DNA of 64,000 nt from an uncultured Gammaproteobacteria bacterium (GCA_964522435.1 CAZFUL010000001.1:11612-75611), one strand, 5' to 3'. Shown: positions 20,545 to 56,913, numbered from the stretch's first letter. Translations and numbers: made by a program. Notes: generated from the letters alone by a model not told the origin.

Positions 20545-20654
20545 ATAAGAAGATTTTATTTTTACCTATCCCTGCTCAGCATACAAGCACGAAAGCAACT
20601 CGCTTCGGGTGCCAAGATGCACCCTGCGCTGCGACTGCTTTCTTTGCTTGTAGC

Positions 20655-20688
20655 TTTTAGGGGGATAGTATTAATTTTATCCCCCCAG
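20655..20688 (+). terminator. recG intrinsic terminator
   Basis: 'agggggatagtattaattttatccccc' hairpin just after the recG stop. Confidence 0.5.
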
Positions 20689-20693
20689 CCTGA

Positions 20694-20722
20694 TTGACAA
20701 AATAGCCAAAATCGGCTAGGGT
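20694..20722 (+). promoter_or_regulatory. sigma70-like promoter (TTGACA-N17-TAGGGT) with an internal palindrome
   Basis: 'ttgaca aaatagccaaaatcggc tagggt'. The spacer contains the inverted repeat tagcc-aaaat-cggcta. The promoter lies about 90 nt upstream of the island's first ORF. Confidence 0.4.
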
Positions 20723-20812
20723 CACTCGAATCGCTTTTTTTAAAGAAGGCGATTTGGTGGTCTTTCACAACGGAATTTTATATGCCCTTAGGTAGGGCGA
20801 AAGGGGATGATC

Positions 20813-22576
20813 ATGAAAGATTGGAATTGGAAAAAGTTGTCTTTTGTTGGGTCGCTCGTCATCATCGGCCTCACGGCCGTGGCTGGGCTGAGCCTGTTTT
20901 GGCACAACCTGCTCTGGAGCACGGTGTTTCCCGTGCCCTGGGCTGCCTGGATGGCGTCGGCCTTGATCGCCTTTGCGTCGCTCACCTTGCTGTCCTTCGG
21001 TGTTACCGGGACGCCTTTCCTTTTTTTGGCAGAGAAGATCTGCCTGCTGCCTTACAGCAAGGAGCAGACGTCCGAGCGGACCAAAGAGATTGAGCAGATC
21101 GCCGCCATTTTTGCATTCGCATTTTTGGCAGCCTTTTCGCTCAGCATCATTGGGACCAGCAAGTTCTGGTCATACCTGTTTCCAAAGCCATGGCACTGGA
21201 TTCCAGCGGTCGCAACCGCTGGGTTGGTGATTGCGCTTGAAATCATGGTTTTTCGCTCGGTGAAGGCGGGAATGAAGAAACGGATTGCCACCATCGTGAT
21301 GATGGCGTCGTTTCTGACGTTCTGTTTCGCGATCGAGATTATGGACAAGGACATCCTGCGTGAGAAAAAAATCATGCTGGATGAACAAGTTGCTCAAGCG
21401 CAGCATGATCAAGACCGGCGTGTTGCCCAGGCGAAAGAACTGAAAGAAGGAGAAATTCTTCGGCAGTTTGACGCCAAAGTGGCTGAAGCGCAGCAAAGCG
21501 CTGATGCTGCGGGCACACGGGCGCAAGCGGCAAATGCGAATCGGATTGCTGTGGTGACGCAGCAGTTTGAAGCGCAGATCGCGGCCGCAACATTGCACAT
21601 GAACTGTGCTCGGCAGCGGCTGTCGAACTGTTTGCCCGGATCACTCATGAAGCCGGGCAGCACTGAACGCGAAATCGCCGCAGCAGTGCGGCATCGCGAC
21701 GCCGCGGTGAAGCGCTTGGAAGTAGCTCGCAATACCGCGCTCATGAACGCTGGCGTTGCCGCCGGCGGGTCTGAAGGCGAGTCGCCTGCTCTGGCGCAAG
21801 CCCGGCAGGATCGAGACCAAGCCTTGGCCGCGTTGAACGGCCTGAGCAAAGAAGCGTTGCTCTCCGGGAGTGGCAACGTCCCCCTTCGCTTTGACGCGAC
21901 GGACTTTGACGGATTTCAGTCGACCATGAAGGCCTTTGGACGAGTTCTTTGGAACTCCCCGGCGACCTGGCCATGGTTTTTGCTGATGTTCTGCTTTGTC
22001 CTGTCCCTCGAGGCGATTCCTATCATTATGTTGTCCTTGCGCTCCTCTGCCTACCTTCGCTACTTGCTTTCGCAAGAGCCCAGCCTGGATCAGCTCGTGG
22101 CGCATGCCATGAACCTCAAGGTTGCGCAAGTAGACCTTGAGGAGCAGATCCCTGCTTCCGTGTTCAAAGCCGCGATGATGGGCGCGCTGTTTGCCAAACA
22201 GATCGCACAGATCGAGGCCTACCGTGAGCAGCTGGGCCAGGTCTTTGGCATGATCAAGCAAGGAGAGTTCAAGACTTTGCTTGATGTGACTCTGTTTCTC
22301 ATGCCAAGCTATAGCCTGGTAAAAGGTGCTCTCTGCGATATGCAGGTAGGGGGATACACATTCCCCAAGATCTTTTATCTGGATGCGGACATGTTTGATG
22401 GGTACAAGCCGCTTATTGAAGATTGCCTCGTCGATGCAGAAGCGGAGCGTGAGCGAGAAAAGCTCGCGGCTGCCAATCGTCCTGCTGGAGCAAACGGTCA
22501 TGTCCTCCGATCTGCCGGAGGCTTCGATGCCTCTGGTGCTGATGCGGTGAGCCTTTCTGCCGCCCCCGCCACCTGA
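20813..22576 (+). CDS. novel multi-pass membrane protein with a long coiled coil (GC-rich island gene 1)
   Basis: 587-589 aa. The start is the ATG at 20807 or at 20813; 20813 sits 5 nt after an 'aagggga' SD. Five N-terminal hydrophobic helices, a ~150-aa Ala/Gln/Glu-rich heptad-like segment, a sixth helix 'WPWFLLMFCFVLSLEAIPIIMLSL', and a ~180-aa C-terminal soluble region. No known catalytic motif. Confidence 0.6.
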   Translation: MKDWNWKKLSFVGSLVIIGLTAVAGLSLFWHNLLWSTVFPVPWAAWMASALIAFASLTLLSFGVTGTPFLFLAEKICLLPYSKEQTSERTKEIEQIAAIFAFAFLAAFSLSIIGTSKFWSYLFPKPWHWIPAVATAGLVIALEIMVFRSVKAGMKKRIATIVMMASFLTFCFAIEIMDKDILREKKIMLDEQVAQAQHDQDRRVAQAKELKEGEILRQFDAKVAEAQQSADAAGTRAQAANANRIAVVTQQFEAQIAAATLHMNCARQRLSNCLPGSLMKPGSTEREIAAAVRHRDAAVKRLEVARNTALMNAGVAAGGSEGESPALAQARQDRDQALAALNGLSKEALLSGSGNVPLRFDATDFDGFQSTMKAFGRVLWNSPATWPWFLLMFCFVLSLEAIPIIMLSLRSSAYLRYLLSQEPSLDQLVAHAMNLKVAQVDLEEQIPASVFKAAMMGALFAKQIAQIEAYREQLGQVFGMIKQGEFKTLLDVTLFLMPSYSLVKGALCDMQVGGYTFPKIFYLDADMFDGYKPLIEDCLVDAEAEREREKLAAANRPAGANGHVLRSAGGFDASGADAVSLSAAPAT

Positions 22577-22596
22577 AACACCATCCCACCGATTTA

Positions 22597-22670
22597 CGGA
22601 ACACGAACTGCCTTGGGCAACCAGTTCGTGTTCCTTCCCACCCCCTCACATAGGAGGTTTTTTTATTTTA
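22597..22670 (+). terminator. intrinsic terminator(s) after island gene 1
   Basis: 13-bp stem ggaacacgaactg/cagttcgtgttcc, then 'cctcacataggagg' followed by a T-run. Confidence 0.5.
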
Positions 22671-22831
22671 TGCGCATAATATAGGTATTGAGTAACTATT
22701 CTGTCCACCTATCCTACTTGATTTTTTTCATACAATATGTACTATCCTCCTTAACCGCTTGTGTAGAGAAACACAGATCCTCGTACGTTGCTGGCGGCTG
22801 CAAAGATACAGGAGACAAAGGAGCAAAGGCC

Positions 22832-23113
22832 ATGATTGATAAATCACTTGAACAGGTAGAGATCCTTATTTCTGCCATCGAGGCCGTGGGCCTCTCGGTT
22901 GAAAAGATCCTGCGCCGAGGGCAGGTGCATGGTTTTGTCCTGGATAATCAGCCCCCGCAGGGCTACCGCTATGATGAGCTGCTCACCTCCCGGGCACGGG
23001 AGTTGCGTGATGCCAAGAATCTGGGAGACTTCATCACTCGGATGGAGCATCTTCTGGGAACGAGCTACAATGCGGTTTTGAACCGCAATCTCTACATCGT
23101 GGCGTATCGGTAG
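22832..23113 (+). CDS. small paralog A (GYRYD-motif family, island gene 2)
   Basis: 93 aa from the ATG at 22832, preceded by 'aggagcaaagg'. The track ORF begins at 22688 but its N-terminus lies in AT-rich non-coding-looking DNA. Confidence 0.5.
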   Translation: MIDKSLEQVEILISAIEAVGLSVEKILRRGQVHGFVLDNQPPQGYRYDELLTSRARELRDAKNLGDFITRMEHLLGTSYNAVLNRNLYIVAYR

Positions 23114-23236
23114 CAAGGGGGCTTGCATTTTTTGCAAAAGTCTGTAGAATGGCTTCTAACCGCTTGAAACCAACAGAGAGGGAATTCCCAATGTATCTCG
23201 TGTGGCGGTTGCGAGATTGGGAAAAGGGAGAAATTC

Positions 23237-23527
23237 ATGAATTCGGCATACTTGGCGGCTTTGATGGCCGCGGTCAAGGCTTTGGGTAGCAACGCCCGAG
23301 CCTTCTCCGAGAACCCCGACATCGCCGGACTCAAGACCGGCACCAAGGCACCGACTGGGTATCGCTACGACCTCGCTGCTGGGGTCGCGTTCTCGAGCAG
23401 CCCGGAAGCGCAGCGTTTCTTCGACAAGATGAAGACGTTGCTCGGCTCCAGCTTCCTCCCCGTGGTGAAGCGCGAGATTTTCATCACCGAGATCGTCTTC
23501 AAGAAAGAAGAGGCCGCTTCCGCCTAG
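23237..23527 (+). CDS. small paralog B (GYRYD-motif family, island gene 3)
   Basis: 96 aa with SD 'aagggag'. The 'PTGYRYDL...KMKTLLGSSF' core aligns with paralogs A and C. Confidence 0.5.
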   Translation: MNSAYLAALMAAVKALGSNARAFSENPDIAGLKTGTKAPTGYRYDLAAGVAFSSSPEAQRFFDKMKTLLGSSFLPVVKREIFITEIVFKKEEAASA

Positions 23528-23751
23528 GCCTTCGGCGCCACGGGCAAGCAACCCCTCTTGTGCGAAGAGGAACAACCAACCAGGTCAACAGTGAGGAGCT
23601 GTTGACACCCACCAACAAAAAGACTCACCTACGCCCTTCGGGCTTCGGTGAGGAAGCGAGGGAAGCTGTTGGTCGCACCAGTGCACGCATCCGCGTTGCC
23701 TGCCAACAGATTCCATTCCAAGGGATAGTAGACATACTGTATCTTGGAATA

Positions 23752-23790
23752 TAAAAAACCTTGCACCAGAACGGTGCAGGGTTTTTTATT
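23752..23790 (+). terminator. intrinsic terminator after paralog B
   Basis: 'aaaaaaccttgcaccagaacggtgcagggtttttt'. Confidence 0.6.
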
Positions 23791-23913
23791 GCGCTTGATT
23801 TTTTTTTCTAACTTGTTTAGTATGAGCTACAACCGTTCTACCAAAGGAGTACCACGTTGCTATTGATGACTTGAACGGGCGTCACAATGGCAGTACGCTC
23901 TGAGGAGAGAAAA

Positions 23914-24210
23914 ATGTCAGGCGATCTCATCGATCAAATTGCGCGCCTCATTGCCGCGCTCGAGGCTTTTCAGCTGACTCCGGATCAGGTGATCCGTCAA
24001 ACGGACATCACCGGGTTCGAGGTCGGGGAGCGGGTGCCAGCGGGCTATTACTGGAATGCGATTCGGCATCGTGCCCAGGCGCAGGAGTTGAAGGACGCGC
24101 AAGGGGTACCCGCGTTCCAGATTCGGATGGAAGACCTCTTGAAGCACGACTACCAGTCTGTGGTTGAGGGGAAGCTCTTCATCAAGGCCGTCATTCGCCT
24201 GCGTGGGTGA
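23914..24210 (+). CDS. small paralog C (GYRYD-motif family, island gene 4)
   Basis: 98 aa from the ATG at 23914, which has the strong SD 'gaggagag' 5 nt upstream. The track start at 23887 is probably too far upstream. Core 'PAGYYWNAI...RMEDLLKHDY'. Confidence 0.5.
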   Translation: MSGDLIDQIARLIAALEAFQLTPDQVIRQTDITGFEVGERVPAGYYWNAIRHRAQAQELKDAQGVPAFQIRMEDLLKHDYQSVVEGKLFIKAVIRLRG

Positions 24211-24329
24211 CACATCCAACAAACAAGACCTGCCTGCTGGCAGGGAAGTGAGGGAAACTGTTGCTTGAAGGAGGTAAGCAACAGATCCCATTCAAGAATA
24301 GAGTATGTGAAAATAGTCTGTTGTTGAAT

Positions 24330-24365
24330 AAAAAAAATCCCGACTCAGTCGAGGATTTTTTTGTT
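24330..24365 (+). terminator. intrinsic terminator after paralog C; right edge of the island
   Basis: 'aaaaaaaatcccgactcagtcgaggattttttt'. Confidence 0.55.
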
Positions 24366-24469
24366 TATGAAGGGATGCCGGCAGCGTCAGTCAACAAATA
24401 GTTGACCTCGGCTGCCAGACATCATGCCCACATCATCGTGTCAGTTTTTTCCTCCGGTTGGTGCCACTT

Positions 24470-25813
24470 TTAACCGGTATGTTTAATTAACTCAGCAATA
24501 TTTTTTACCTGAAGGACGGTTGCTTTTGTTTTGGTCTTGGTAGCATTGCGTACTGTGGTAATGACTCGTTGTATGCCTAAGGCTTCGCATTCTTTTATGC
24601 GTTTTTCCAAAAAGCGTACGGAACGAATTTCTCCACCCAACCCTACTTCGCCAAATACCGCCAGGTCATTGCCTAACACTTTATCTTTATATGCGCTCGC
24701 AATGGCTAAACAGACTGCCAAATCAACACTGGGTTCTTGGGCTTTAATACCACCAACAATATTGACGTGCACGTCATATTGCCCCAACGTTAATCCCGCT
24801 CGTTTTTCTAATACGGCAATTAACACGTGTAGGCGGTTTAAATCAAAGCCACTGGCTTTACGCACGGGATAACCAAAGCTGGTTTTATTTACTAAGGCTT
24901 GTACTTCTACCAACAAGGGGCGAGAACCTTCCATCAAGCAGGTAACCACTGAGCCAGGCATTGCTTCTCCTCGTTCAGAAAGAAGGAGGGCAGAAGGGTT
25001 GGCAATTTGATGCAAGCCGGCCTCGTCCATATCAAACATGCCAATTTCATCGGTTGAGCCAAAACGATTTTTTACCGAACGAAGTAAGCGGATGTTATGA
25101 TAGCGATCACCTTCTAAATATAAAACCGTATCAACCAAATGTTCTAAGGTGCGTGGTCCTGCCACAGCGCCATCTTTTGTCACATGACCAATAAGAAGAA
25201 TGGCGGTTTGTTGTTCTTTTGCTGCGCCTAATAACTTTGCTGCGCAGGCGCGAATTTGAGACACATTGCCAGGTTCTCCCATAACCTCATCAGAGAAAAT
25301 GGTTTGAATAGAATCAACAATGGCGAGCGTTGGTTGTTCTTTTTTTATGGTGGCAATAATGCGTTCAACAGAGGTTTCATTACTCAACAGTAAGGTAGAG
25401 GTTTTTTTGTGTATGCGATCAGCACGTAATTTTATCTGTCCAATAGATTCTTCTCCAGATAAGTACAATGTTTTTGGAATAGCAAGCGCCATTTGTAACG
25501 AAAGGGTGGATTTTCCAATCCCAGGTTCTCCACCTAAGAGAATAAAACTCCCCGGAACAATGCCACCACCAAGAACACGATTGAGTTCTTCAATATTGGT
25601 TGAGACGCGGTTGACACTGTTGGTATCAATATCTTGTAGGGCAGTTGTTTTTGCGGTTGGATAGGCAGCGAGATCCGTTTGTTGCTTATGCACCGCAGTG
25701 ACTTGTTCTTTTATCGTTCCCCATTTACCACAAGTTAAACAACGGCCAGACCATTTTATATACTGGGCGTCACAATGATCGCAGACAAAAAGAGTGTCTA
25801 TTTTTTTATTCAT
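24470..25813 (-). CDS. radA: DNA repair protein RadA/Sms
   Basis: N-terminal zinc finger 'CDHCDAQYIKWSGRCLTCGKWG', Walker A 'GEPGIGKSTL', KNRFG motif, Lon-like C-terminus. Confidence 0.9.
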   Translation of the reverse strand: MNKKIDTLFVCDHCDAQYIKWSGRCLTCGKWGTIKEQVTAVHKQQTDLAAYPTAKTTALQDIDTNSVNRVSTNIEELNRVLGGGIVPGSFILLGGEPGIGKSTLSLQMALAIPKTLYLSGEESIGQIKLRADRIHKKTSTLLLSNETSVERIIATIKKEQPTLAIVDSIQTIFSDEVMGEPGNVSQIRACAAKLLGAAKEQQTAILLIGHVTKDGAVAGPRTLEHLVDTVLYLEGDRYHNIRLLRSVKNRFGSTDEIGMFDMDEAGLHQIANPSALLLSERGEAMPGSVVTCLMEGSRPLLVEVQALVNKTSFGYPVRKASGFDLNRLHVLIAVLEKRAGLTLGQYDVHVNIVGGIKAQEPSVDLAVCLAIASAYKDKVLGNDLAVFGEVGLGGEIRSVRFLEKRIKECEALGIQRVITTVRNATKTKTKATVLQVKNIAELIKHTG

Positions 25814-34308: not shown

Positions 34309-35370
34309 ATGGAAAGGTTGACATGCATTATTTTTGCGGGAGGAGCAGGAACACGGCTCTGGCCGATGAGTCGGAAAAATTCTCCGAAACAATTTGCGAG
34401 TATTAAACAGAATCAATCTACCTTACAAATGGCTGTAGAGCGTATTTCCTACTTTGGTTTGGAAAATTTATATATTTCAACCAACGCGGCCTATGCCCAT
34501 TTAGTTAAAGAGCAAGTTCCTGACCTGTTAGACAGCCAGGTATTTCTAGAACCTGCGAAACGAGACCAAGGACCTGCGGTTGGCTTAACCCTTTTGCGAT
34601 TAAAACAGCAGGGTATTACTGGCCCCATTGCAATATTATGGTCCGATCATTTAATGGATCATCCAGATTCTTTTCGCGATGCCCTTAGTCATGCGGGGAA
34701 ATTAGTTGAACAGCAACCAAATCGCTTTATTTTTTTGGGCGAAACACCACGCTTTCCCAATCATAACTTGGGCTGGATGCATATTGGGAAAAAAACAGCA
34801 GAGGGGACACATGAATTTTTAGGATGGAAGTATCGGCCAGAAGTTCCTGCGTGTAAAGAACTGTTTGAGAGTAAAGAATGGTTATGGAATACTGGCTATT
34901 TTGTCACGGATATCGATTTTTTACTTGATCTGTATAAACGCCTTCAACCAGAATTATATAGTGCATTGCTGACTATGGCAGGGGATGAGTCTCTTGTTGA
35001 GCGCGACTATGGAACATTGCCAGCTATTTCTTTTGATAATGCTATTATAGAAAAAACCGATCTATCAGAAGGGGCGGTACTCTCCTTGAATTTGGGTTGG
35101 AGTGATCCAGGAACCTTATATGCCTTTAAAGAGGCGTTTGCTCCCGATGAAAAATCGAACTATGCGGTAGGCCAAACAATCGATTTAGGAAGTACTGATT
35201 CATTTATCTATAATGAAGAACCAAAAAAATTGGTCAGTACCATTGGGTTAGAGGGTATGATTGTGGTGAATACCAAAGATGCGATACTCGTCTGTAAAAA
35301 AGAAGACGTTCCTCGGTTAAAGGAATTATTGAAAAAAATAGAAGAAGAAAAAAAAGAGTCGTACTTATAG
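34309..35370 (+). CDS. mannose-1-phosphate guanylyltransferase-like nucleotidyltransferase
   Basis: 'IIFAGGAGTRLWPMSRKNSPKQF' sugar-1-P nucleotidyltransferase signature. Adjacent to the PMM gene. Confidence 0.7.
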   Translation: MERLTCIIFAGGAGTRLWPMSRKNSPKQFASIKQNQSTLQMAVERISYFGLENLYISTNAAYAHLVKEQVPDLLDSQVFLEPAKRDQGPAVGLTLLRLKQQGITGPIAILWSDHLMDHPDSFRDALSHAGKLVEQQPNRFIFLGETPRFPNHNLGWMHIGKKTAEGTHEFLGWKYRPEVPACKELFESKEWLWNTGYFVTDIDFLLDLYKRLQPELYSALLTMAGDESLVERDYGTLPAISFDNAIIEKTDLSEGAVLSLNLGWSDPGTLYAFKEAFAPDEKSNYAVGQTIDLGSTDSFIYNEEPKKLVSTIGLEGMIVVNTKDAILVCKKEDVPRLKELLKKIEEEKKESYL

Positions 35371-35387
35371 ATACGACTCTTTTGTAT

Positions 35388-35609
35388 TTATAGTTTTCCA
35401 ATTTCTCGTAAATCTTTGTCAGGAAGATAGAGAAGGAGTAATCCTAATATAATGCCTGCAACCGCCAACAGAATATGACTTCCATTAAATATGACCACAT
35501 CGATATAATCAAGAACATACCAGACTCCTCGCCAGATAAGCACTAAACCAATAACCACGTTTAAATTTTTTATTACGTAATGAATTGTTTTTTTTGTTTT
35601 TCTTTTCAT
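35388..35609 (-). CDS. small hypothetical membrane protein
   Basis: 73 aa with two hydrophobic helices. Confidence 0.3.
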   Translation of the reverse strand: MKRKTKKTIHYVIKNLNVVIGLVLIWRGVWYVLDYIDVVIFNGSHILLAVAGIILGLLLLYLPDKDLREIGKL

Positions 35610-36139
35610 ATATATAAATTGCTATGAACAAAGGGAATGCAGGCAAGGATGACTGCTTCGCGATAATAATCTGTGCGCGTAATGGCATTATTGGTGAGTG
35701 TCCCTACAGACCCTGCTTCTTGTTTTGAATTTATTTTTCCAAAAACAATATCATCTGCGTCACCTAATTCTTTTCCTTGCTCAATAAGGGTGATGATTGC
35801 TGGTGGAAGAAAAAACACGCCAGTTTTTGCGTTGCCTGTTTGGGTTAACGAACGAATAACAATCCAAGCAAAGCATTCCATACCCTGTTCTGTTTTTTCA
35901 ATGCCTCCTTCAATCCCTACCCAAAAATCAGCCTCCGGCATAGCGGTTTGTGCCCCTTGTGCACGGTTCATGGCGCCGAGAAGCGTTTCATCACTACTCA
36001 TTGGTTGATCACTCACCAAAGAAGGAACAGATATACCGATGTAATTCGCCTGCATATGAGGAAACATGGTCTCAAATCCTTCGGTAACGGCGGCTATTTT
36101 TACGGGATTTTTTGAAGCAATAATAACCTGTGTATTCAT
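35606..36139 (-). CDS. inosine/xanthosine triphosphatase YjjX-like (non-canonical NTPase)
   Basis: 'IIASKNPVKIAAV...DFWVGIEGGIE...GMECFAWIVI' matches the YjjX/DUF84 pattern. Confidence 0.6.
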   Translation of the reverse strand: MNTQVIIASKNPVKIAAVTEGFETMFPHMQANYIGISVPSLVSDQPMSSDETLLGAMNRAQGAQTAMPEADFWVGIEGGIEKTEQGMECFAWIVIRSLTQTGNAKTGVFFLPPAIITLIEQGKELGDADDIVFGKINSKQEAGSVGTLTNNAITRTDYYREAVILACIPFVHSNLYI

Positions 36140-36149
36140 GTAATGGGTA

Positions 36150-36920
36150 TTATGTTTTTTTTAAAAATGTTGCCATAGTTTTTCGTATAATACGCCGTGG
36201 CAATAGGCGTAATAAGAAAACAAACAATGTATTTTTCATCCCTGGAATAATAATCACCTTGTTGGCCATAAGCCCATCATATGCCGCTTGCGCAACTCGC
36301 TCCACGGGCATTGGGTCTTTAAACATAAATAACGATTCTTTTGATGCCTGTTGTTCAAATTCTGTTTTGGTTGGCCCTGGACATAGGGTAGAAACGGTCA
36401 CGGTGCTTCCTTTAAGTTCTTCAGAAAGTGCTTCTGAAAAAGAGAGGACATAGGATTTACTTGCAAAATACACCGCCATATAGGGGCCGGGTTGAAAAGC
36501 TGCCGTAGAGGCAACATTAAGTATTTTGCCAAAACCACGTTTCTTCATATGCGGTAACAGCAAGCGAGAAAGTTCTGTGAGGGCAATAATATTTACCAGT
36601 AACAAAGAATTATTTTTTTGCATGTCAGTTGCATCAAACGCCCCATAATCACCAAAGCCTGCATTATTAACTAATATATCCACAGCAATTTTTTGGTCCC
36701 CTAATTGTTTATAGAGCATGTCTGCTGCATGCGGGAGCGCAAGATCTTGGCACATAACCTGCACCTGTACATGGTAGCGCTTACCCAACTCTGCCGCAAT
36801 GCCCTGCAGTATGTCTTCACGTCGTGCAACTAATACCAAATTATATCCATTTGCGGCAAATAGGCTTGCAAGAGATTTTCCAATACCACTGGAGGCACCG
36901 GTAATAAGAACTGTTTTCAT
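36150..36920 (-). CDS. short-chain dehydrogenase/reductase (SDR)
   Basis: 'LITGASSGIGKSLA' Rossmann motif. Catalytic 'YFASKSYVLSFSEAL' (YxxxK). Confidence 0.8.
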   Translation of the reverse strand: MKTVLITGASSGIGKSLASLFAANGYNLVLVARREDILQGIAAELGKRYHVQVQVMCQDLALPHAADMLYKQLGDQKIAVDILVNNAGFGDYGAFDATDMQKNNSLLLVNIIALTELSRLLLPHMKKRGFGKILNVASTAAFQPGPYMAVYFASKSYVLSFSEALSEELKGSTVTVSTLCPGPTKTEFEQQASKESLFMFKDPMPVERVAQAAYDGLMANKVIIIPGMKNTLFVFLLRLLPRRIIRKTMATFLKKT

Positions 36921-36944
36921 AAAAATAGAAAGAGTAAATAATAA

Positions 36945-39893
36945 TTATTTTTTTTCAATATCTAATACCAACCCTTTGCTTGTCATGATGTACCCTCGAA
37001 TAATGAGTGTTCCTTGGTGTACTTGACTATGGCATGCTTCACACAAAGCGACGAGATTTGCTTTATTATTTTTATGAATATGCGCAATATTGCCATGGTC
37101 ATCTGCCTGTTGCTGCGGAACAATATGATGTGTTTCTTGTACCTTTTTTTTGCATACCGCACAGACCGTTAAGTACATATCTGTATGATACGGGCTTTGT
37201 TGCTTTTGCGTCAATAATTCAACCGTATCTAATTCACCTGCCAATTCTCGTCTAATTTTCATGGCCGTTTTTAAAAATTGCTCATCCATATGTAGGGATT
37301 GCGCAAACTCTAATCCATACACAGAACTACCGCTCCCTGATTGTAATTGGCGATCAAAGATAAGCCGATCTTCTTGTTCATCGTAGCGAACGGACATATG
37401 TACGCTGATCACATGAGGTAATTGCTGCATGTAGGGGAGTTGTTGGAGTTGATGCAAATGGGTGGTAAACACAAATAAGCTCCCGCTTTGGGATAATCGC
37501 ATCATGGTTGATAACACAATCGCTAAAGAAGAAAGGGTTTCTGTGCCATGACTAATTTCATCCCCAAGCAGTAAACTTTTTTCTGTTGCTCGCGCAAAAA
37601 TATGTTTTAATTCCATCATCTCTACGGCAAAAGAAGAAAGGCCTCGAGCAAAGTTATCTTTGCCAACAATACGGGTAAAGAGTTCATGAAATAACGAAAA
37701 ACGCATTGAGGCTGCTGGGACGTATAATCCGGCTTGCGCTAATATCACTGCAATCCCAATACTTTTCATGAGAGAGGATTTTCCACTGGAGTTGATGCCA
37801 TACAGTAATACGCCACGAATATCATCACTGGGTATATCTGAAGTAACACAGGATTGTTGTGCATACGTTTTGTTTCCCAGCACCAAATTATTGGGGACAT
37901 ACACCCCCTGTTCTTCACGAAGTTCTACCAGTGGGTGGCGTAGTTGTTGTATATCAAGAATATGCTCATGTGGTGCTGTGTCTACAATCTCTGGCCGTTG
38001 CAAGCGTAAAGCAATAGAAGAGCGTATGGTGCTTGCCGCCACATCAATGGCTGAAATAAATTGGATACTGTGTGCGATGATGTCATGAAATTTCGTATCG
38101 ATAATATGCAGTTCCTGAACAAAGAGTTCTTTTACCATGGCACGTATTTTTGTTTGTAAGAGCAAGAGCTCTTCGGATATACGATCAATACTGTCACTCG
38201 TTATTTTAATATTGGTTGTTTGTACTTTATAGCGAAAGTCACTCAAGGCATACACTGTCCCATCAAGAGAAATAAATGTTTTTTTGAGAGCGTCTTGAAT
38301 AAGCGCATAGCGACTTTTGGTCATACTAATATAATGACCTTCTTTGTCTAATTGTTTTATGTGGATATACTCAGGTTCTTTTTTTCCGGTTTGTTCTTCG
38401 AGTACAGAAACAATATGATCTTTAATAGATAGTAATTTACTGTATGCCGCGTGTTGTTTTTGAACTAAATCATCGAGTGGGGTATGCGTGTTTGGTTGAA
38501 AAAACGTTCCATCAATAGTGGATAGCGACATGCCTGCGGTATCTGATAAAAGAAAAATGTGTTGTATGTAATGTATTGCCGCGTCAATATCTTTTTCTTT
38601 TTGTTGCATATCAACAATAACCGCATGTGGCGTCGTTGTTGTGCGAAGAATAGTAATACATGTTTTTGCTGCAACCAACGAATCATATAAAAAATTAATT
38701 TCAAAGGGATGCAGCCTTGCCAATTGTACCCGACGTAACAAGCGCTCCATGTCGTATACATTGGTAAGCGCTTGTTCAATATCTCCTAAAAAAGGACGAA
38801 CCGCTTCTGCTAAATGATAGCGTTGTTCAATCTGCTGTTTATCAACAATGGGGTGGAGGAGTCTATCTTTGAGTAAGCGTCTGCCCAGACTGGTCTTCGT
38901 ATAATCAATTACATCTAATAACACGCGTTCATTTGGATCACGAGAAATAATGTTGAGTTGTTCAAGGGGATTATTTCCTAAATATAAAAAGCGGCGCGGT
39001 TCAATTGATACCGGCATACGAAGTTTTTTCATGATGCTATATTCATGATCAATAATAAACTCAATAAGAACGGCCAGTGCCTCTCCGGTAAGGGGCGTAT
39101 GTTCTAAATTAAGATATTCTATGGGACTTAAAAAAGATTCAATGGCAAAGGTTTGTTTAAACAATTCATTTTGATACGCAATAGGAGGCCGTGAGGTCGT
39201 GTGGTGCACTTTATGCTGTTGCTGTATTTCAAGATATTCGAGAAGCTCTTGTTTTGAAACACGAGGATTCAGCGTGGTAATGAGTATTTCTGTTGTTCGA
39301 TGGCTATGAACCACAGAAAACAACTCATCGAGTGCTGCTGTTTTATCTTCTTTGCTCCCACTTGCGTGGAGTGTATAGCAGATGCCGGTCGTTACGTCGA
39401 TTGCTGCATAGCCAATCGTAAAAACACCTTGTTGTTCATCTACCGTGATAGATGCAATAAGGGTTTCATCATGGTCAACGGTATAATCAAAATTCACTCC
39501 AGGAGATAATATACGATCTACATATCGAGTGACCGCAGGTGGTTCTCCTTTTTGACGGACAATAGCAATGGTATATTTTTTTTCTTGCACCAGCCGAGAT
39601 ATGTAGCGATCAAAGGTTGCGGTAGGAAAGCCACATAAGAGGGGATTTTTGAGAGAATTTTCTGCAATATGTTTATTTCTTCTGGTGAGTTGGAGGTTAA
39701 GAATTTCTGCAATTTCTTTTGGTTTTCCAAGACTCATTTCTTTATTATCAACCCCATACACTTCAAAGAATGAACCAACTTCAATAACCACAACGGTGTT
39801 GTTTCCGTAGCGTTGTTCAAGGAGTGTTTGAAGTTCAAAATAAACATCTACCAAGGATTTGTCTTCTTGCGCAAGAATCTCATGTATATCCAT
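36945..39893 (-). CDS. MutS-family protein with C-terminal HNH endonuclease domain (MutS7-like)
   Basis: MutS domain I-like N-terminus 'GSFFEVYG', ABC ATPase 'GINSSGKSSLMKSIG' ... 'LLGDEISHGTE', C-terminal HNH 'HHIVPQQQADDHGNIAHIHKNNKANLVALCEACHSQVH'. Confidence 0.8.
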   Translation of the reverse strand: MDIHEILAQEDKSLVDVYFELQTLLEQRYGNNTVVVIEVGSFFEVYGVDNKEMSLGKPKEIAEILNLQLTRRNKHIAENSLKNPLLCGFPTATFDRYISRLVQEKKYTIAIVRQKGEPPAVTRYVDRILSPGVNFDYTVDHDETLIASITVDEQQGVFTIGYAAIDVTTGICYTLHASGSKEDKTAALDELFSVVHSHRTTEILITTLNPRVSKQELLEYLEIQQQHKVHHTTSRPPIAYQNELFKQTFAIESFLSPIEYLNLEHTPLTGEALAVLIEFIIDHEYSIMKKLRMPVSIEPRRFLYLGNNPLEQLNIISRDPNERVLLDVIDYTKTSLGRRLLKDRLLHPIVDKQQIEQRYHLAEAVRPFLGDIEQALTNVYDMERLLRRVQLARLHPFEINFLYDSLVAAKTCITILRTTTTPHAVIVDMQQKEKDIDAAIHYIQHIFLLSDTAGMSLSTIDGTFFQPNTHTPLDDLVQKQHAAYSKLLSIKDHIVSVLEEQTGKKEPEYIHIKQLDKEGHYISMTKSRYALIQDALKKTFISLDGTVYALSDFRYKVQTTNIKITSDSIDRISEELLLLQTKIRAMVKELFVQELHIIDTKFHDIIAHSIQFISAIDVAASTIRSSIALRLQRPEIVDTAPHEHILDIQQLRHPLVELREEQGVYVPNNLVLGNKTYAQQSCVTSDIPSDDIRGVLLYGINSSGKSSLMKSIGIAVILAQAGLYVPAASMRFSLFHELFTRIVGKDNFARGLSSFAVEMMELKHIFARATEKSLLLGDEISHGTETLSSLAIVLSTMMRLSQSGSLFVFTTHLHQLQQLPYMQQLPHVISVHMSVRYDEQEDRLIFDRQLQSGSGSSVYGLEFAQSLHMDEQFLKTAMKIRRELAGELDTVELLTQKQQSPYHTDMYLTVCAVCKKKVQETHHIVPQQQADDHGNIAHIHKNNKANLVALCEACHSQVHQGTLIIRGYIMTSKGLVLDIEKK

Positions 39894-39901
39894 ACGATCA
39901 A

Positions 39902-40786
39902 TTACATCCCTCGTAATTTTGCAATTCGATCTTCAATAGGAGGATGTGTGGAGAACAAATTTTTTATTCGCGCGCCTTTTTGTGGATTGGAAATAAACAA
40001 ATGCGCCGTTGCCGCATTTGCCGTAGTAAGCGGTGTAGAGGAAGCAGCTATTTTTTCTAGCGCCCGGGCAAGTCCCTCGGGATAGCGAGTAAGCAATGCT
40101 CCAGATGCGTCAGCCAAATATTCTCGTTTTCGAGAAATAGCGAGTTTAATGAGTTCAGAAATAATCGGTGAGAGAATTAATAGAACCACTCCTGCAATCG
40201 CAAGAATCGTTCCCAATTGGCCGCTTGGACGACGATCATCATCGCTGCCACCACCCAGCAGTCGAAAACGAAAGAAAAAGTCAGATAATAACGCAATGGT
40301 GCCAACCAACACGACAACAATGGTCATCACTCGAATATCATAATTTTGAATATGGGATAATTCATGAGCAATAACCCCTTCTAATTCTTCATTCTCGAGG
40401 GCCTCAATTAACCCAGTTGTTAAGGCAATAGAGGCGTGTTCGGGGTCTCTTCCTGTGGCAAAGGCATTTAATGCAGGGGAGTTGATAATATGTACTTTTG
40501 GGACAGGGATCCCCGCGGTAATACACAAGTTTTCTACCATGCGAAAAACATAAGGATTATCTTCTTTTTGTATACGTACTGCAGCACTTGCGTGTAAGGC
40601 CAATTTGTCAGAATGATAATAACTGACAATGGAGGTGACAGAAGAAAATATGACCGCAAACACCAGTGCGCCATACCCAGCTTCGGTATATAGGCTAAGG
40701 AGATACCCAATTCCAATAATAAAGGCAAGAAAAATGCCAATAAGAATACGAGTTTTTCGTTTGTTTGCGTCAATCTGAGAATACAT
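39902..40786 (-). CDS. htpX: zinc metalloprotease HtpX (M48)
   Basis: 'HELSHIQNYD' HExxH motif with four TM segments. Confidence 0.85.
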   Translation of the reverse strand: MYSQIDANKRKTRILIGIFLAFIIGIGYLLSLYTEAGYGALVFAVIFSSVTSIVSYYHSDKLALHASAAVRIQKEDNPYVFRMVENLCITAGIPVPKVHIINSPALNAFATGRDPEHASIALTTGLIEALENEELEGVIAHELSHIQNYDIRVMTIVVVLVGTIALLSDFFFRFRLLGGGSDDDRRPSGQLGTILAIAGVVLLILSPIISELIKLAISRKREYLADASGALLTRYPEGLARALEKIAASSTPLTTANAATAHLFISNPQKGARIKNLFSTHPPIEDRIAKLRGM

Positions 40787-40788
40787 AA

Positions 40789-41382
40789 TTACAATGAAAC
40801 CACGACATTTTTTCTTTCTGCGGCGTCTTCTATTTCAAAGAATTCGTACTTCGTGAATTTGAGCATTGTTGCAAAGACATTATTTGGAAAGCTTTCCATT
40901 TTGGTATTAAAGTCTCGTACCATGCCATTGTAAAAGCGACGAGAGGCTTGAATTTTATTTTCTGTGTCAGACAATTCATCCATAAGTTGTGACACATTGT
41001 TGTTTGCTTTTAAATCTGGATATGCTTCTACGGCAATTTGTAATTTAGATAACATACCGCCAAGCATACTTTCGCTGGTTGCTAAGGCTTTTGTATCTCC
41101 GGCTTGTTGCGCATCCATCGCTTGTGAACGAGCTTTGGTAATATTTTCCAACAGCGTTTTTTCATGGGTCATGTAGCCTTTGACACTGTTGATTAAGTTG
41201 GGAATCAAATCATGGCGGCGTTTTAGCTGCACGTCAATATCGCTCCAAGATTCTTTGGTGCGATTATTGAGTTTTACTAAGCCATTATAGAGGGCAATAA
41301 GCCAGAGGGCGAGCACAATAAGAATGGCTAATACGATATACAATGCGATCATAGTCATAAAAAATATAGCCCAGAGATGCAA
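40789..41382 (-). CDS. lemA: LemA family protein
   Basis: N-terminal TM segment plus 'LYNGLVKLNNRTKESWSDIDVQLKRRHDLIPNL'. Confidence 0.8.
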   Translation of the reverse strand: MHLWAIFFMTMIALYIVLAILIVLALWLIALYNGLVKLNNRTKESWSDIDVQLKRRHDLIPNLINSVKGYMTHEKTLLENITKARSQAMDAQQAGDTKALATSESMLGGMLSKLQIAVEAYPDLKANNNVSQLMDELSDTENKIQASRRFYNGMVRDFNTKMESFPNNVFATMLKFTKYEFFEIEDAAERKNVVVSL

Positions 41383-52720: not shown

Positions 52721-54622
52721 ATGCCCGCACCATACTTGCGTAAAATTGGGACAGCTCCTATTGTAAAAGATGAAATTTGTTTATTTGCGCAAACCAATTT
52801 TCGTAATTCGTTGCGTCGTTTTGGTATTAAAACAGACGATCGACGACGACACATGTATATTATTGGAAAAACCGGGATGGGAAAATCAACCATGATGGAA
52901 AACATGATTTTGCATGATATTTATTCTGGGCACGGTGTCGCCTTGGTCGATCCCCATGGAGATTTTGCAGAAAAAATTATTAATTTTATTCCTCCTAATC
53001 GCGTCAATGACGTGGTCTATTTTAATCCTGCTGACTTAGCTAACCCGATTGGCTTTAATATCTTAGAAGTGATTAATGAAGAACAAAAACATTTGATTGC
53101 TGCTGGGCTTTTGGGGACCTTTAAAAAGATTTGGCCAGACGTATGGTCATCTCGTATGGAATATATTTTAAATAATACCTTGTTAGCATTATTAGAGTAT
53201 CCTGGTTCTACCTTGCTTGGAATTAATCGGCTCATGTCTGACGCAAAATATAGAAAAAAAGTAGTCAAACAAGTAAAAGATCCTGTGGTAAAGGCCTTTT
53301 GGAATGTGGAATTTGCGAGCTATTCTGAACGCTATGCCCAAGAAGCGACATCATCTGTTCAAAATAAGATTGGGCAATTTTTATCAACAACACTTATTCG
53401 TAACATTGTCTCGCAAACAAAGTCTACGGTTGATATTAGAAAGGTCATGGATGAAAAAAAGATTTTGATCATGAATTTGTCAAAAGGACGCATGGGAGAA
53501 GATAATAGTCGGTTGATGGGGGGCATGCTTATTACAAAAATTCAATTAGCAGCTATGGAACGCGTGGATACACCAGAAGCTGAACGAAAAGATTTCTTTT
53601 TATATGTAGACGAGTTTCAAAATTTTGCCACACCATCATTTGCGAACATTTTATCAGAAGCGCGCAAATACCGTTTAAGTTTAATTATGGCGCATCAATA
53701 TGTTGCTCAGTTGGATGAGGTCGTGGCTGATGCCGTGTTTGGAAACGTGGGAACCATTGTTACCTTTCGAGTTGGCGCGGCTGATGCGGAAGTGTTGGCA
53801 AAAGAGTTCGCCCCCTTATTTTTGGAAGAAGATATTGTGAATTTGAGTAAATATTCTGTATTATTAAAATTAATGATAGATGGTGTTGCGTCACAACCGT
53901 TTAGTGCCGTGACCATGCCTCCTATTGGCTCGCCAACCGGATCATCTGAAAAAGTGATTCGTGTATCTCGTGAACGCTATGGTCGGCCTCGTGAAGAAAT
54001 TGAAGAGAAAATTTTGCGCTGGAGTGGTTTGGGAGATGATCCTGATGCTGATTCATTTGACGAAGATGAGGGCGCAGGATTTTCTGCACTGCCAAAAGAG
54101 GCTGTGGTAAAAAAAGAAGAAAGACGACCTGACCAAAAACCACAAATGCCGAGAAGTACTGATAGACCGCGAGGAGATCGTCCAGGACAAAAGAGATCCG
54201 ATGCTCCACAGCGGCAATCTGCAACAGCACGGCAGGGGGATAGGCGAGGGCCGGTATCTTCGCCTAAACCACCCGCAGTCGTAGCCGAGGTTGTACCACC
54301 CCCAATACCAGCCGTGAGTATTTCTTTAGATGTATTACGTGAGGATACAACGGGAGCTTCTGATACAACGGTCAAACAAGATGATAGCTTATCTGTTGGT
54401 ATTGTATCTCGTATGGATGTTGCCAAGCGAAGCCCTCTTGTTGATGGCTTAATCGTCCCAAATACTGCAACGGTTGATACACCTGTGGTTGGAGTCTCAG
54501 AAGGAAATGATCAGACCATAAGTCATCCAGAAAAAAAGAAAAGAAGACGCCGTCGTCGTAAAAGTAATGGGGGAGGGCAGCAAGGCGCTCTGCCTTCTGC
54601 TGCAGCACCTGCTCAGGAATAA
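52721..54622 (+). CDS. TraD/VirD4-like (TrwB_AAD_bind/DUF87-type) P-loop ATPase with Arg/Pro-rich disordered tail
   Basis: Walker A 'IIGKTGMGKST'. 'VDPHGD'. Walker B 'FLYVDEFQNFAT'. C-terminal ~180 aa of low complexity ending 'KKRRRRRRKSNGGGQQG'. Confidence 0.55.
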   Translation: MPAPYLRKIGTAPIVKDEICLFAQTNFRNSLRRFGIKTDDRRRHMYIIGKTGMGKSTMMENMILHDIYSGHGVALVDPHGDFAEKIINFIPPNRVNDVVYFNPADLANPIGFNILEVINEEQKHLIAAGLLGTFKKIWPDVWSSRMEYILNNTLLALLEYPGSTLLGINRLMSDAKYRKKVVKQVKDPVVKAFWNVEFASYSERYAQEATSSVQNKIGQFLSTTLIRNIVSQTKSTVDIRKVMDEKKILIMNLSKGRMGEDNSRLMGGMLITKIQLAAMERVDTPEAERKDFFLYVDEFQNFATPSFANILSEARKYRLSLIMAHQYVAQLDEVVADAVFGNVGTIVTFRVGAADAEVLAKEFAPLFLEEDIVNLSKYSVLLKLMIDGVASQPFSAVTMPPIGSPTGSSEKVIRVSRERYGRPREEIEEKILRWSGLGDDPDADSFDEDEGAGFSALPKEAVVKKEERRPDQKPQMPRSTDRPRGDRPGQKRSDAPQRQSATARQGDRRGPVSSPKPPAVVAEVVPPPIPAVSISLDVLREDTTGASDTTVKQDDSLSVGIVSRMDVAKRSPLVDGLIVPNTATVDTPVVGVSEGNDQTISHPEKKKRRRRRRKSNGGGQQGALPSAAAPAQE

Positions 54623-56913
54623 TGTTATACCCTATGCTTCGTGTATTGTCTCTTAAAGACAGGATCATTGATATACTTCCATATCTTTTTCTTTTGTTGG
54701 CTCCAGCGCTCATACCATTGATGATACTACCGTCACTTGATCAGCCATTATTGTTTTCTAAAGAAATAGTAGTATTTGTCTCTATAAGTGGTGCTGCAGT
54801 TTGTTGGTTGTTACGGGGTATTTTGCATAAACGATTTTTTCTTCGTCGTACTATTATCGACATTCCACTACTGGTCATTTTTTTCTGTAGTCTCGTATCG
54901 CTTATTTTTGCGGCTGATAAATCGATTGCGTTTTTTGGTGCGAGTACGAATTTTGTGTTACATGGGACGCTGCTGATAAGTTTTCTTATCTATGTGTGGT
55001 TGTGTTTACAGGAAATCCGAACCTTGGCTCGGACCAGAGCTATGATTGCTGTGTATTGTTTCTCAAGTGCGCTTGCTGCTGCTCTTTTCCTAATTCGTTC
55101 ATTTGGATGGGGGGGTGAATCTCTTATAGGAATAGGATTATCACCTGGACTTACCAATACCGTAACGCTGTTGAATTCAGGATTTGGTATATATATGCTT
55201 ATGGCTCTCGTGATTAGCCTTGGGATTGTCGCAACACAGCAATCATCACGATTGCTCGTGGTTGCTGCTTTTGCAGCAATTTTTTTGGAAGTTGTTGTGT
55301 TGTTGCGAATAGATTTTTCAGTATTGTGGGTATTGTGTATTATTACTTGTGTTGCGTTGGCAATACTCTCTTGGTATGTTCGATCTTCTTCGCGGATTCT
55401 TGTCCTATCGTTGGTTGTGGGAGTGTCTTTTTTTGGGCTTTTTGCATTCTTTTCTCCTTGGTCTATTCTTCAAAAAGAAACACTACCCGCAGAAGTAAGT
55501 GTGAGTAGTGCTGTTTCTTGGCACATTATTTCAGAAGCTGCGCAAGCCGTGCCTAAATTTTTTTTGATTGGTGCGGGGCCGGGACATTTTGAATCACTCT
55601 TTTTATTATATCGTCCGGATTCATTTAATTTAGATCCACTTGCTTGGTCTATTCGCTTTCAACAACCGTATAATACGCTATTTGATATTATGGTAAGTAT
55701 GGGCTTGTTTGGTATTTCAAGCATGGCTATGCTGTTGTTTATGACACTCGGAAGTATTTTTGCGGCAATCAAAGCGTATCTACGTCATGAACGTCATCCG
55801 TATATGCTTGGATTTAGTGATGAAAAAAAACAAGTGGTGCAGCAAGCATTTTTTTTGGTTATTGCCTGGATCATCCTCACTATTGGTATGGGGATATTGT
55901 ATTATGATATCGCGTTGTGGTTTAGTTGGTGGTTTTTATTAGCACTCATCATTATTGGTCTAGGCGTTATATCACCTGCATTGATAAAAGAAAAAAAACC
56001 AACACGCAGGTTTTCAGAGCAATATGTATTATTGCTTTGGCTCTTGTTTGTTGTTTGTCTGTTGTTTGTCTCTATACGAGGCGTATTTATGTATCGACAC
56101 CTCAATGCTGCATATTGGTATAGCATTGCCACAAACAGTGTCTCTGTTGATAAAAAAGAACAGGCAATAGCGCAAGCACTCACATTTCGTCCTAATTATC
56201 CCGTCTATCAAATTGCATTGGCACAAATTCTTTTAGAAAAAGCGCAACAAGAAGCCAGAAGTACAGCTGCTAATGAACAACTCATTGCTCGTTTACTCGC
56301 AGGGGGGATTGATAGCATGAAGACGCTTACCGCAAAACATCCAACTTCTGTGAATGGTTGGGAAACGCTTGCTTTGTTGTATATGAATTCTCGTACGTTT
56401 GCTCCAAATGCCATAACTTGGGCAATTGACGCGTGGTTAGAAACAATTTCTTTAGATCCGCATAACCCACTATTTTATTGGCAACTCGGTCGTTCGTATG
56501 AAGCTGCAGAACAATACAGCGAAGCAATAAATGCCTACGAACGGGCTATTGAAGAAAAAAAAGATTATGTTCCTGCGTATATGAGTATAGGTCTCGTATT
56601 TGAAACACAAACACAATATCATGCCGCGATTGATACCTATCTTCAATTATTAGAAGAACAACCACGCTATGCCTTGGGATGGTATCAGCTTGGTCGCGTG
56701 TATTTTAATCGTGCTGAACGTGGTGATTACACCCTCGCGCAAGATGCCTGGCAAGAGGCTATTCGTATTGACCCGTTGTATGTTGATGCCCTCTACAGTT
56801 TGGGATTATTAAAAGAACAACAAGGAAAACCACAAGAAGCAAGAAGGTATTATCAAAATATACTGCAAATTGATCAAACAAATAAACAAGCACAGGAGCG
56901 TTTATCTCAATAA
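54622..56913 (+). CDS. O-antigen-ligase-like polytopic membrane protein fused to C-terminal TPR repeats
   Basis: About 12 hydrophobic helices, then TPR-like repeats 'WQLGRSYEAAEQYSEAINAYERAIEE...YMSIGLVFE...GWYQLGRVYF'. Confidence 0.5.
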   Translation: MLYPMLRVLSLKDRIIDILPYLFLLLAPALIPLMILPSLDQPLLFSKEIVVFVSISGAAVCWLLRGILHKRFFLRRTIIDIPLLVIFFCSLVSLIFAADKSIAFFGASTNFVLHGTLLISFLIYVWLCLQEIRTLARTRAMIAVYCFSSALAAALFLIRSFGWGGESLIGIGLSPGLTNTVTLLNSGFGIYMLMALVISLGIVATQQSSRLLVVAAFAAIFLEVVVLLRIDFSVLWVLCIITCVALAILSWYVRSSSRILVLSLVVGVSFFGLFAFFSPWSILQKETLPAEVSVSSAVSWHIISEAAQAVPKFFLIGAGPGHFESLFLLYRPDSFNLDPLAWSIRFQQPYNTLFDIMVSMGLFGISSMAMLLFMTLGSIFAAIKAYLRHERHPYMLGFSDEKKQVVQQAFFLVIAWIILTIGMGILYYDIALWFSWWFLLALIIIGLGVISPALIKEKKPTRRFSEQYVLLLWLLFVVCLLFVSIRGVFMYRHLNAAYWYSIATNSVSVDKKEQAIAQALTFRPNYPVYQIALAQILLEKAQQEARSTAANEQLIARLLAGGIDSMKTLTAKHPTSVNGWETLALLYMNSRTFAPNAITWAIDAWLETISLDPHNPLFYWQLGRSYEAAEQYSEAINAYERAIEEKKDYVPAYMSIGLVFETQTQYHAAIDTYLQLLEEQPRYALGWYQLGRVYFNRAERGDYTLAQDAWQEAIRIDPLYVDALYSLGLLKEQQGKPQEARRYYQNILQIDQTNKQAQERLSQ

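Follow-up and report, generated by a model that had tools for sequence, protein, structure and literature searches.

A MutS7-type MutS-HNH fusion in a Magasanikbacteria-like bacterium of the Candidate Phyla Radiation, a candidate self-contained initiator of mismatch repair

MutS7 has been defined as a MutS protein in which domains I, III and V are followed by an HNH nuclease, and it was proposed to be self-sufficient in repair, without MutL or MutH (PMC3166940); it is the textbook candidate for a single-polypeptide initiator of mismatch repair. In the searchable literature the only hosts are octocoral mitochondria, Epsilonproteobacteria and nucleocytoviruses, and we found no open-access paper tying MutS7 or a MutS-HNH fusion to the Candidate Phyla Radiation (CPR), Patescibacteria, Parcubacteria or Magasanikbacteria. 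Here we describe a MutS7-type gene in a 64,000-nucleotide stretch of DNA (GCA_964522435.1, CAZFUL010000001.1:11612-75611; hereafter, the window), which encodes a MutS-HNH fusion of 982 amino acids (aa). The family is already known and this is not a new kind of system; public databases contain hundreds of CPR copies, labelled 'DNA mismatch repair protein'. The host range of MutS7 is nevertheless wider than in the searchable papers, and a Magasanikbacteria-like CPR bacterium carries a genuine MutS7.

The octocoral mitochondrial protein (mtMutS), which we compared by description only, has the same published formula of domains I-III-V-HNH at ~957-1045 aa, conserves the FYE, Walker and H-H-N-H residues, and has also been proposed to carry out self-contained repair (PMC3166940, PMC8438181, 10.1101/2021.09.08.459357). 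It differs in being organelle-encoded, and its reported identity to the Mimivirus protein is only ~25% (PMC3166940). In one octocoral the loss of mt-mutS is accompanied by a rate increase biased towards transitions (10.1101/2021.09.08.459357). The same design, a MutS ATPase with a small C-terminal nuclease, is found in MutS2-Smr and in plant-type MSH1, but the nuclease folds differ, being Smr in MutS2, GIY-YIG in MSH1 and HNH in the window protein. MutS2 has no domain I, and its roles lie in recombination suppression and ribosome rescue. According to 10.1101/2024.07.17.603841, MSH1 and MutS7 have no direct relationship, and the idea of 'dual recognition-incision enzymes' is credited to Malik and Henikoff in PMC2147049.

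The gene is a single uninterrupted open reading frame (ORF) with an ATG start and a stop codon at 36945-36947, and its coordinates were checked by translation (Table 1). The initial annotation, made from the sequence alone, had reported an ORF of this length with a domain-I-like N-terminus, a MutS ATPase and a C-terminus reading '...HHIVPQ...HGNIAHIHKNNKANLVALCEACHSQVH...'. Both the ORF and the quoted C-terminus were reproduced exactly, and a Pfam scan of the full protein matched MutS_I (PF01624, residues 31-133, E 1.6e-11), MutS_III (PF05192, residues 310-621, E 3.2e-21) and MutS_V (PF00488, residues 696-884, E 2e-41). Domains I, III and V are the only ones that Pfam detects in the MutS part, matching the published definition of MutS7. 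The other features of the family are also found here: a domain I with Phe-x-Glu, domains III and V with Walker A/B, and an HNH with H-H-N-H. The alignment shows that G-x-F-[FY]-E is common to the window protein, giant-virus MutS7 and E. coli MutS. An identical protein is present in the NCBI-derived protein collection (P0001).

The C-terminal HNH domain scored below the Pfam threshold when the full-length protein was scanned (PF01844, 18.5 bits versus a cutoff of 21.4). The isolated C-terminal 97 aa passed it (26.0 bits versus 21.4, E 1e-5) and scored 21.0 bits for HNH_2, whose cutoff is 21.0. When 25 family members were scanned as isolated domains, HNH was matched in 16/25, HNH_2 in 18/25 and DUF968 (PF06147) in 24/25. 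The model of the 97 residues, with a predicted local distance difference test score (pLDDT) of 81, has a beta-beta-alpha core followed by a hairpin, and all of its top Foldseek matches are HNH nucleases. Among solved structures, these were EcoKMcrA (6ghc, match probability 0.92-0.94), Cap5 (8fmh), IscB (9liq, 33% identity over 52 columns at a root mean square deviation of 2.5 Å), TagI (6ghs) and the type I-E HNH Cascade. A profile alignment to the IscB HNH placed the CxxC, HH, N, CxxH and H motifs in register, with C911, C914, H922, H923, N946, C951, C954, H955 and H959 as the residues of the core. Taken together, the isolated-domain Pfam match, the IscB motif alignment and the HNH-only fold matches bear out the C-terminal HNH nuclease that the initial annotation had called. 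The zinc site is Cys4 (C..C...C..C) in CPR members, and the fourth ligand is His (CKKHH) in Campylobacterota members.

Two further conserved elements surround the nuclease. In the linker that precedes it, S900 and Y902 are conserved in at least 90% of sequences, and the model shows a short helix at residues 890-895 with lower pLDDT. In the trailing hairpin, modelled as two strands with high pLDDT, G967, T971 and G974 are invariant in the alignment, and the hairpin is also found in most giant-virus homologues.

Some relatives vary at the C-terminus. The closest one (P0002, 70% identity, 934 aa, on a 6.2-kb contig) stops early inside the HNH domain ('...ETHHNSPANAGR'); the truncation could stem from a frameshift or assembly error, or a sister strain may truly have lost the nuclease. 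Four homologues of ~1016-1024 aa (P0094, P0097, P0112 and P0114) carry an additional acidic C-terminal tail of ~35 residues, which the window protein does not have, finishing in ...DMDDF, ...DMNDF or ...LLDDWD. The HNH region of a Sulfuricurvum protein (L026) is nearly identical to that of the tailed members. By analogy, the acidic tail recalls the C-terminal tip with which SSB recruits partner proteins, and it could be a clue to a connection between MutS7 and the replisome in some members.

Although MutS7 has been described as lacking domains II and IV (PMC3166940), both are predicted to be physically present in the window protein. The full-length AlphaFold2 model, built from an alignment of 41 sequences (mean pLDDT 80), has an alpha/beta unit at residues 144-250, in the position of the connector domain II, and a beta-rich insert at residues 510-565, in the position of the clamp domain IV; hhalign showed the first to be collinear with E. 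coli MutS residues ~116-226 and aligned the second to residues ~456-500. The family profile as a whole is collinear with E. coli MutS residues 24-796 (hhalign probability 100), and Foldseek matched the model to E. coli MutS (1wb9_A, a chain of 788 residues) with E 8e-42 over ~890 columns. By sequence, the best matches among solved structures are E. coli and Taq MutS. PF05188 (MutS_II) is recorded for ~20/120 listed homologues, and MutS_IV has been detected in 12 octocoral proteins (10.1101/2021.09.08.459357). Because the structure and profile comparisons show both domains, we attribute the published description to weak Pfam/SMART detection; the retained connector and clamp correct the 'I-III-V only' account in the literature, and the family appears to keep both. 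The body of MutS7 is thus a complete, five-domain, MutS1-like ATPase in which the C-terminal oligomerisation region is swapped for a zinc-stabilised HNH.

The comparison with MutS1 itself (E. coli, Taq and Listeria) agrees with this layout: the two have a five-domain body, a Phe-x-Glu wedge and an ABC ATPase in common, but identity is only 22-24%, the region used for oligomerisation and clamp binding in MutS1 is HNH in the window protein, and no mutL is adjacent. Beyond residue 885, where the linker, HNH and hairpin lie, the E. coli row of the alignment is largely gapped and has no CxxC or HH. The window protein also fails both MutS1 equivalog models, with 356.1 bits versus a cutoff of 480 for NF003810 and 269.7 bits versus 641.7 for TIGR01070. 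A MutS2 identity was considered as well and rejected, as domain I is present, there is no Smr match, and TIGR01069 scored 122 bits versus a cutoff of 400; that match covers residues 575-900 only and comes via the ATPase.

Neighbour-joining trees, a distance method, were built on the MutS body (828 columns, HNH excluded, 200 bootstraps) with MutS1 represented by seven sequences from four phyla (E. coli, Listeria, S. aureus, Cytobacillus, Geosporobacter, Parabacteroides and Roseomonas). The viral rows were contigs of giant-virus metagenome-assembled genomes (GVMAGs), and the trees were drawn without octocoral and named Mimivirus sequences and without MutS2-MutS8. MutS7 from CPR, Campylobacterota and giant viruses separated from the seven MutS1 sequences with 100% bootstrap. 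The CPR clade, including the window protein, received 99.5% and the Campylobacterota clade 95%, and the two were sister clades with 100%. Giant-virus sequences alone were recovered in 1% of bootstraps and, with MutS1 as outgroup, were not monophyletic relative to the bacterial clade, a sequence-based pattern suggesting that they have a bearing on the direction of MutS7 transfer. The protein therefore groups with the MutS-HNH proteins of Campylobacterota and giant viruses, apart from MutS1, and is not MutS2, as the assignment to MutS7 in the initial annotation had implied. Because of this placement and the failed MutS1 and MutS2 cut-offs, sequence comparison makes the window protein almost certainly a member of the MutS7 family.

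Two loci titled 'uncultured Gammaproteobacteria' (L004 and L016, third-party annotation assemblies) also encode a MutS7 inside the CPR clade, and L016 adjoins an Uhrbacteria sequence in the tree. A third with the same record title (L011), outside the tree sample, matches the window protein at 53%, as CPR loci do. The titles of all three are probably taxonomic mislabels of metagenome-assembled genomes (MAGs) of Patescibacteria.

A search of a collection of 5.8 billion proteins gave 1217 matches, of which the top 120 are described here; all of these are full-length (~970-1025 aa) and 45-70% identical, and their named sources are Candidatus Magasanikbacteria, Kerfeldbacteria, Nomurabacteria, 'Patescibacteria group' and Hydrogenimonas, whose protein is named 'HNH endonuclease' or 'MutS-related protein' at NCBI. 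In a scan of one bacterial genome per species, at least 571 loci encode a relative. Among the best 80, Magasanik-, Kerfeld-, Uhr- and Nomurabacteria MAGs come first at 48-56% identity, and many Campylobacterota come next at 44-48% (Sulfurimonas, Sulfuricurvum, Sulfurospirillum, Sulfurovum, Arcobacter, Malaciobacter, Halarcobacter, Hydrogenimonas, Nitratifractor and Thiovulum); the best species-representative match is only 56% identical, and that scan held no identical copy. In viral contigs, 579 loci had relatives, and the best 80, most of them on GVMAG contigs, have full-length products (950-1060 aa, 26-36% identical) whose alignments extend across the HNH. The viral sequences most like the window protein are L083 and L084 (35% identity), two of the giant-virus contigs L083-L161. 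The phage and plasmid collections held no MutS7 copy, only MutS1/MutS2-type proteins of ~24% identity whose matches stop before the HNH.

The Campylobacterota proteins (e.g. Hydrogenimonas thermophila WP_092910910.1, and those of Sulfurimonas, Arcobacter, Sulfurospirillum and Nitratifractor) are 44-49% identical to the window protein end to end and match it in length (~980 aa) and in layout, I-(II)-III-(IV)-V-linker-HNH-hairpin. However, their gene neighbourhoods are unlike the window locus, and their hosts are free-living chemolithotrophs, whereas the window belongs to an ultra-small CPR bacterium. Giant-virus MutS7 (Nucleocytoviricota, Mimiviridae-type), compared here from GVMAG contigs and not from the named Mimivirus protein, has the HNH catalytic and zinc residues, Phe-x-Glu and ATPase motifs in common with the window protein but is much more divergent, and some members are longer or have insertions.

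Conservation was assessed in an alignment of 41 homologues with 45-70% identity. F42 and E44 of the Phe-x-Glu mismatch wedge are invariant, as are G699, N701, G704, K705 and S706 of Walker A, D778 and E779 of Walker B, T811 and H812, and C911, C914, H922 and H923 of the nuclease, while N946, C951, H955 and H959 are at least 90% conserved. The mismatch-binding and nuclease residues are under strong purifying conservation, and we therefore argue that both activities are in use.

In line with the published proposal for MutS7 in general (PMC3166940), which the initial annotation had cited as a self-contained nickase, we propose that the protein acts as an in-cis mismatch-repair nickase. A homodimer held by the retained helices of domain V would scan DNA, and mispairs and small loops would be recognised by the Phe-x-Glu wedge of domain I. 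On binding ATP the dimer would, like MutS1, become activated or begin to slide, and the tethered HNH would nick one strand near the mismatch, in cis, replacing MutL, or MutL and MutH. Resident helicase, exonuclease, polymerase and ligase activities would finish the repair. Indirect support comes from the strict conservation of wedge and nuclease site together, from the rate increase in the octocoral that lost mt-mutS (10.1101/2021.09.08.459357), and from Arcobacter butzleri, which is free of hypervariable G:C tracts despite its lack of MutL and MutH (PMC2147049). This scheme supposes dimerisation, nicking that is activated by a mismatch, a choice of strand and independence from MutL across the whole genome, and taken alone we hold it to be a little better than an even bet; for MutS7 identity and the nickase mechanism together, our estimate is a probability of about 0.6.

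Several points weigh against this proposal. Our literature search found no demonstrated nuclease or repair activity for any MutS7, and the Foldseek E-values of the HNH model are weak (0.04-0.3), because the domain is so small. Inspection of the linker by eye, with no formal scan, found no convincing beta-clamp motif (QLxLF-like), no strand-discrimination signal was evident, and the window showed neither a Dam nor a Dcm methylase. With two HNH domains in a dimer, the enzyme might cut both strands instead of nicking one. In addition, the 64-kb window is part of a contig of at least 257 kb, and the genome may encode MutL, MutH or another MutS outside the window, and the connector domain II, the MutL-docking surface in MutS1, is predicted to be kept, which is compatible with a MutL partner.

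The alternative that survives best is a nuclease for heteroduplex rejection, not for the repair of replication errors. Such an enzyme would cut mismatched intermediates of recombination or transformation, as in MutS2-Smr, and would limit the integration of diverged DNA in a naturally competent, nucleotide-scavenging CPR cell. In Epsilonproteobacteria of the Helicobacter type, the only MutS paralogue acts on recombination. MutS2 is treated in PMC2147049. A mismatch sensor and a nuclease joined in one architecture would suit such a role, as would the lack of any strand-discrimination factor found for a replication-coupled one. DprA, RadA and RecG are encoded in the window (12797-13879 (-), 24470-25813 (-) and 18445-20544 (+), within 13 kb of one another; RadA is also called Sms), and transformation and recombination machinery is thus present; however, these genes lie 20-25 kb from MutS7 and are neither linked to it nor co-conserved. 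The anti-recombination proteins of MutS2 type have no domain I, whereas its Phe-x-Glu is invariant here, eukaryotic domain I is confined to paralogues active in mismatch repair, and the octocoral data indicate control of the mutation rate (10.1101/2021.09.08.459357). We consider a role restricted to heteroduplex rejection unlikely, at about one chance in five, although the two functions would not be mutually exclusive, by analogy with MutS1, which does both.

Rather less likely still is an ordinary MutS1-like sensor that works with a MutL encoded elsewhere, the HNH being an accessory such as a MutL-activated substitute for MutH. The full five-domain MutS1-like body, connector included, would fit such a partner, most of the genome lies outside the window, and some CPR bacteria, the Gracilibacteria and Absconditabacteria, do encode MutS and MutL (PMC8406219). 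As the initial annotation had stated, there is no mutL in the window: tblastn with E. coli MutL (E<=10) and Listeria MutL (E<=1) found no MutL-like sequence there, and the same probes found no MutL in the flanks, about 10 kb each, of 159 related MutS7 loci. In contrast, mutL lies directly downstream of mutS in 4/6 MutS1 loci from the plasmid collection. Arcobacter butzleri is reported to be without MutL and MutH, and without the hypervariable G:C tracts seen in Campylobacter and Helicobacter (PMC2147049); genomes of Arcobacter/Arcobacteraceae carry MutS7, although none of the loci listed is from A. butzleri itself. MutS7 has been proposed to occur without a cognate MutL in octocoral mitochondria and giant viruses (PMC3166940), and the scores far below the MutS1 equivalog cut-offs also argue against an ordinary MutS1.

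A selfish or defensive nuclease with no part in genome maintenance, either a homing-type HNH inserted in mutS or an anti-phage ATPase-nuclease, is largely refuted and very improbable: homing endonucleases and defence systems often contain HNH domains, McrA, Cap5 and Cascade-HNH are among the top fold matches, and the mitochondrial MutS HNH has been grouped with that of group II introns in a classification of His-Me fingers (PMC5714182), but the fusion, linker and hairpin are in register across CPR, Campylobacterota and giant viruses, no copy was found in the phage or plasmid collections, the gene has the same GC content as its surroundings and sits in a conserved housekeeping operon with no defence island, variable neighbourhood or conserved partner gene, and PADLOC gave no match for MutS7 or three of its neighbours.

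The in-cis nickase proposal is also set in a housekeeping context. MutS7 is the third gene of a co-directional string, a putative operon with intergenic gaps of 2, 8, 24, 10 and -4 nt. Promoter-like and terminator-like sites were no commoner than in shuffled sequence, and only the hairpin that closes the string is plausibly placed. The order LemA-HtpX-MutS7 is common to four Magasanikbacteria loci (L001, L008, L009 and L014), the longer order PheT-PheS-RseP / LemA-HtpX-MutS7 ... PGM-ClpB recurs in several MAGs of Magasanikbacteria, whose flanking proteins share 50-84% identity with those of the window. The initial annotation had called the host CPR-like, and this holds: the nearest homologues and the syntenic flanks come from Magasanikbacteria, Kerfeldbacteria and Uhrbacteria MAGs. 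The shared synteny supports both a CPR-like host and vertical inheritance within the lineage, against recent acquisition. Beside MutS7 in 79 bacterial loci, a search for a helicase, exonuclease, methylase or MutL partner found only lineage-specific housekeeping synteny.

Table 1. Coordinates of the MutS7-type gene, its domains and motifs, and its co-directional neighbours in the window.
Feature	Position	Strand	Basis
MutS7-type gene, 982-aa MutS-HNH fusion	36945-39893	-	ORF list, Pfam and NCBIfam scans
Domain I, mismatch-binding, residues 1-133	39495-39893	-	PF01624
Phe-x-Glu motif F42-F43-E44	39762-39770	-	Within domain I
Connector-like domain II, residues ~134-266	39096-39494	-	AlphaFold model and hhalign; missed by Pfam
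Domain III core/levers, residues 267-640	37974-39095	-	PF05192, with an insertion inside the profile match
Clamp-like domain IV, residues ~503-566, nested in domain III	38196-38387	-	Model and alignment
Domain V, ABC ATPase and dimerisation helices, residues 641-885	37239-37973	-	PF00488
Walker A GINSSGKS	37776-37799	-	Domain V
Walker B LLGDE	37557-37571	-	Domain V
Conserved linker, residues 886-910, consensus ..LELLTKKxxSKYN..LYLT	37164-37238	-	Alignment
HNH (beta-beta-alpha-metal) core and Cys4 zinc site, residues 911-959	37017-37163	-	PF01844, Foldseek, profile alignment
C-terminal beta-hairpin, residues 963-981, consensus GKLxIxGFxMTSxGLxLxYE	36951-37007	-	Alignment and model
Co-directional string, putative operon	35352-41382	-	Pfam names, gap lengths, terminator scan
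LemA	40789-41382	-	Pfam
HtpX/M48	39902-40786	-	Pfam
SDR (short-chain dehydrogenase)	36150-36920	-	Pfam
NTPase_I-T, PF01931	35606-36139	-	E 1.3e-52
Small membrane protein	35388-35609	-	Last gene of the string
Terminator-like hairpin closing the string	35352-35383	-	Terminator scan

The rest of the window is core chromosome, with genes for ScpA, ParA/ParB, RelA/SpoT, TopA, a Mur ligase, DprA, Pth, Der, RecG, RadA, ClpB, FtsW, MnmA and AlaS. Two genes downstream of MutS7, in the same string, is the NTPase_I-T gene (PF01931), which we take to belong to the YjjX-type inosine/xanthosine triphosphatase family and which would then be a further gene for avoiding mutations; other CPR loci do not conserve the linkage, so it is probably coincidental. 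A patch at 20000-24400 has a GC content of 0.51-0.53, compared with ~0.40 elsewhere in the window, and its long antisense ORFs are probably artefacts of high GC. Within the patch, a 589-aa ORF (20807-22576 (+)) has no Pfam match, an Ala/Gln-rich centre and several membrane segments by prediction; its product may be a surface protein that evolves fast or was acquired horizontally. At 52721-56913 (+), the stop codon of a 633-aa ATPase resembling TrwB/TraG-type coupling proteins overlaps the start codon of a 763-aa TPR protein, and amid the housekeeping genes the two look like a pair related to type IV secretion or DNA translocation.

What this locus adds to the knowledge of the family is modest: a CPR clade that is sister to the Campylobacterota clade, the retention of all five MutS1-type domains, and a zinc site that is Cys4 in CPR and Cys3His in Campylobacterota. 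The documented range of MutS7 is thereby extended to a second bacterial phylum, one with tiny genomes, which suggests how at least some CPR bacteria maintain replication fidelity with a minimal repair kit and provides a deep bacterial sister clade to be included in the debate on the origin and transfer direction of the octocoral and viral genes. A broader picture, which we offer tentatively and at somewhat less than even odds, is that Magasanikbacteria-related CPR bacteria lack MutL, MutH and MutS1 and rely on MutS7, and that the bacterial clade has a single origin with one inter-phylum transfer. CPR and Campylobacterota co-occur in sulfidic groundwater and vent biofilms (PMC10811913), and the transfer perhaps took place there. 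If this is true, MutS7-reliant CPR and Campylobacterota would be the most tractable natural system for MutL-independent mismatch repair, and the bacterial MutS7 clade would be an overlooked branch in the debate on the origin of octocoral and giant-virus MutS7.

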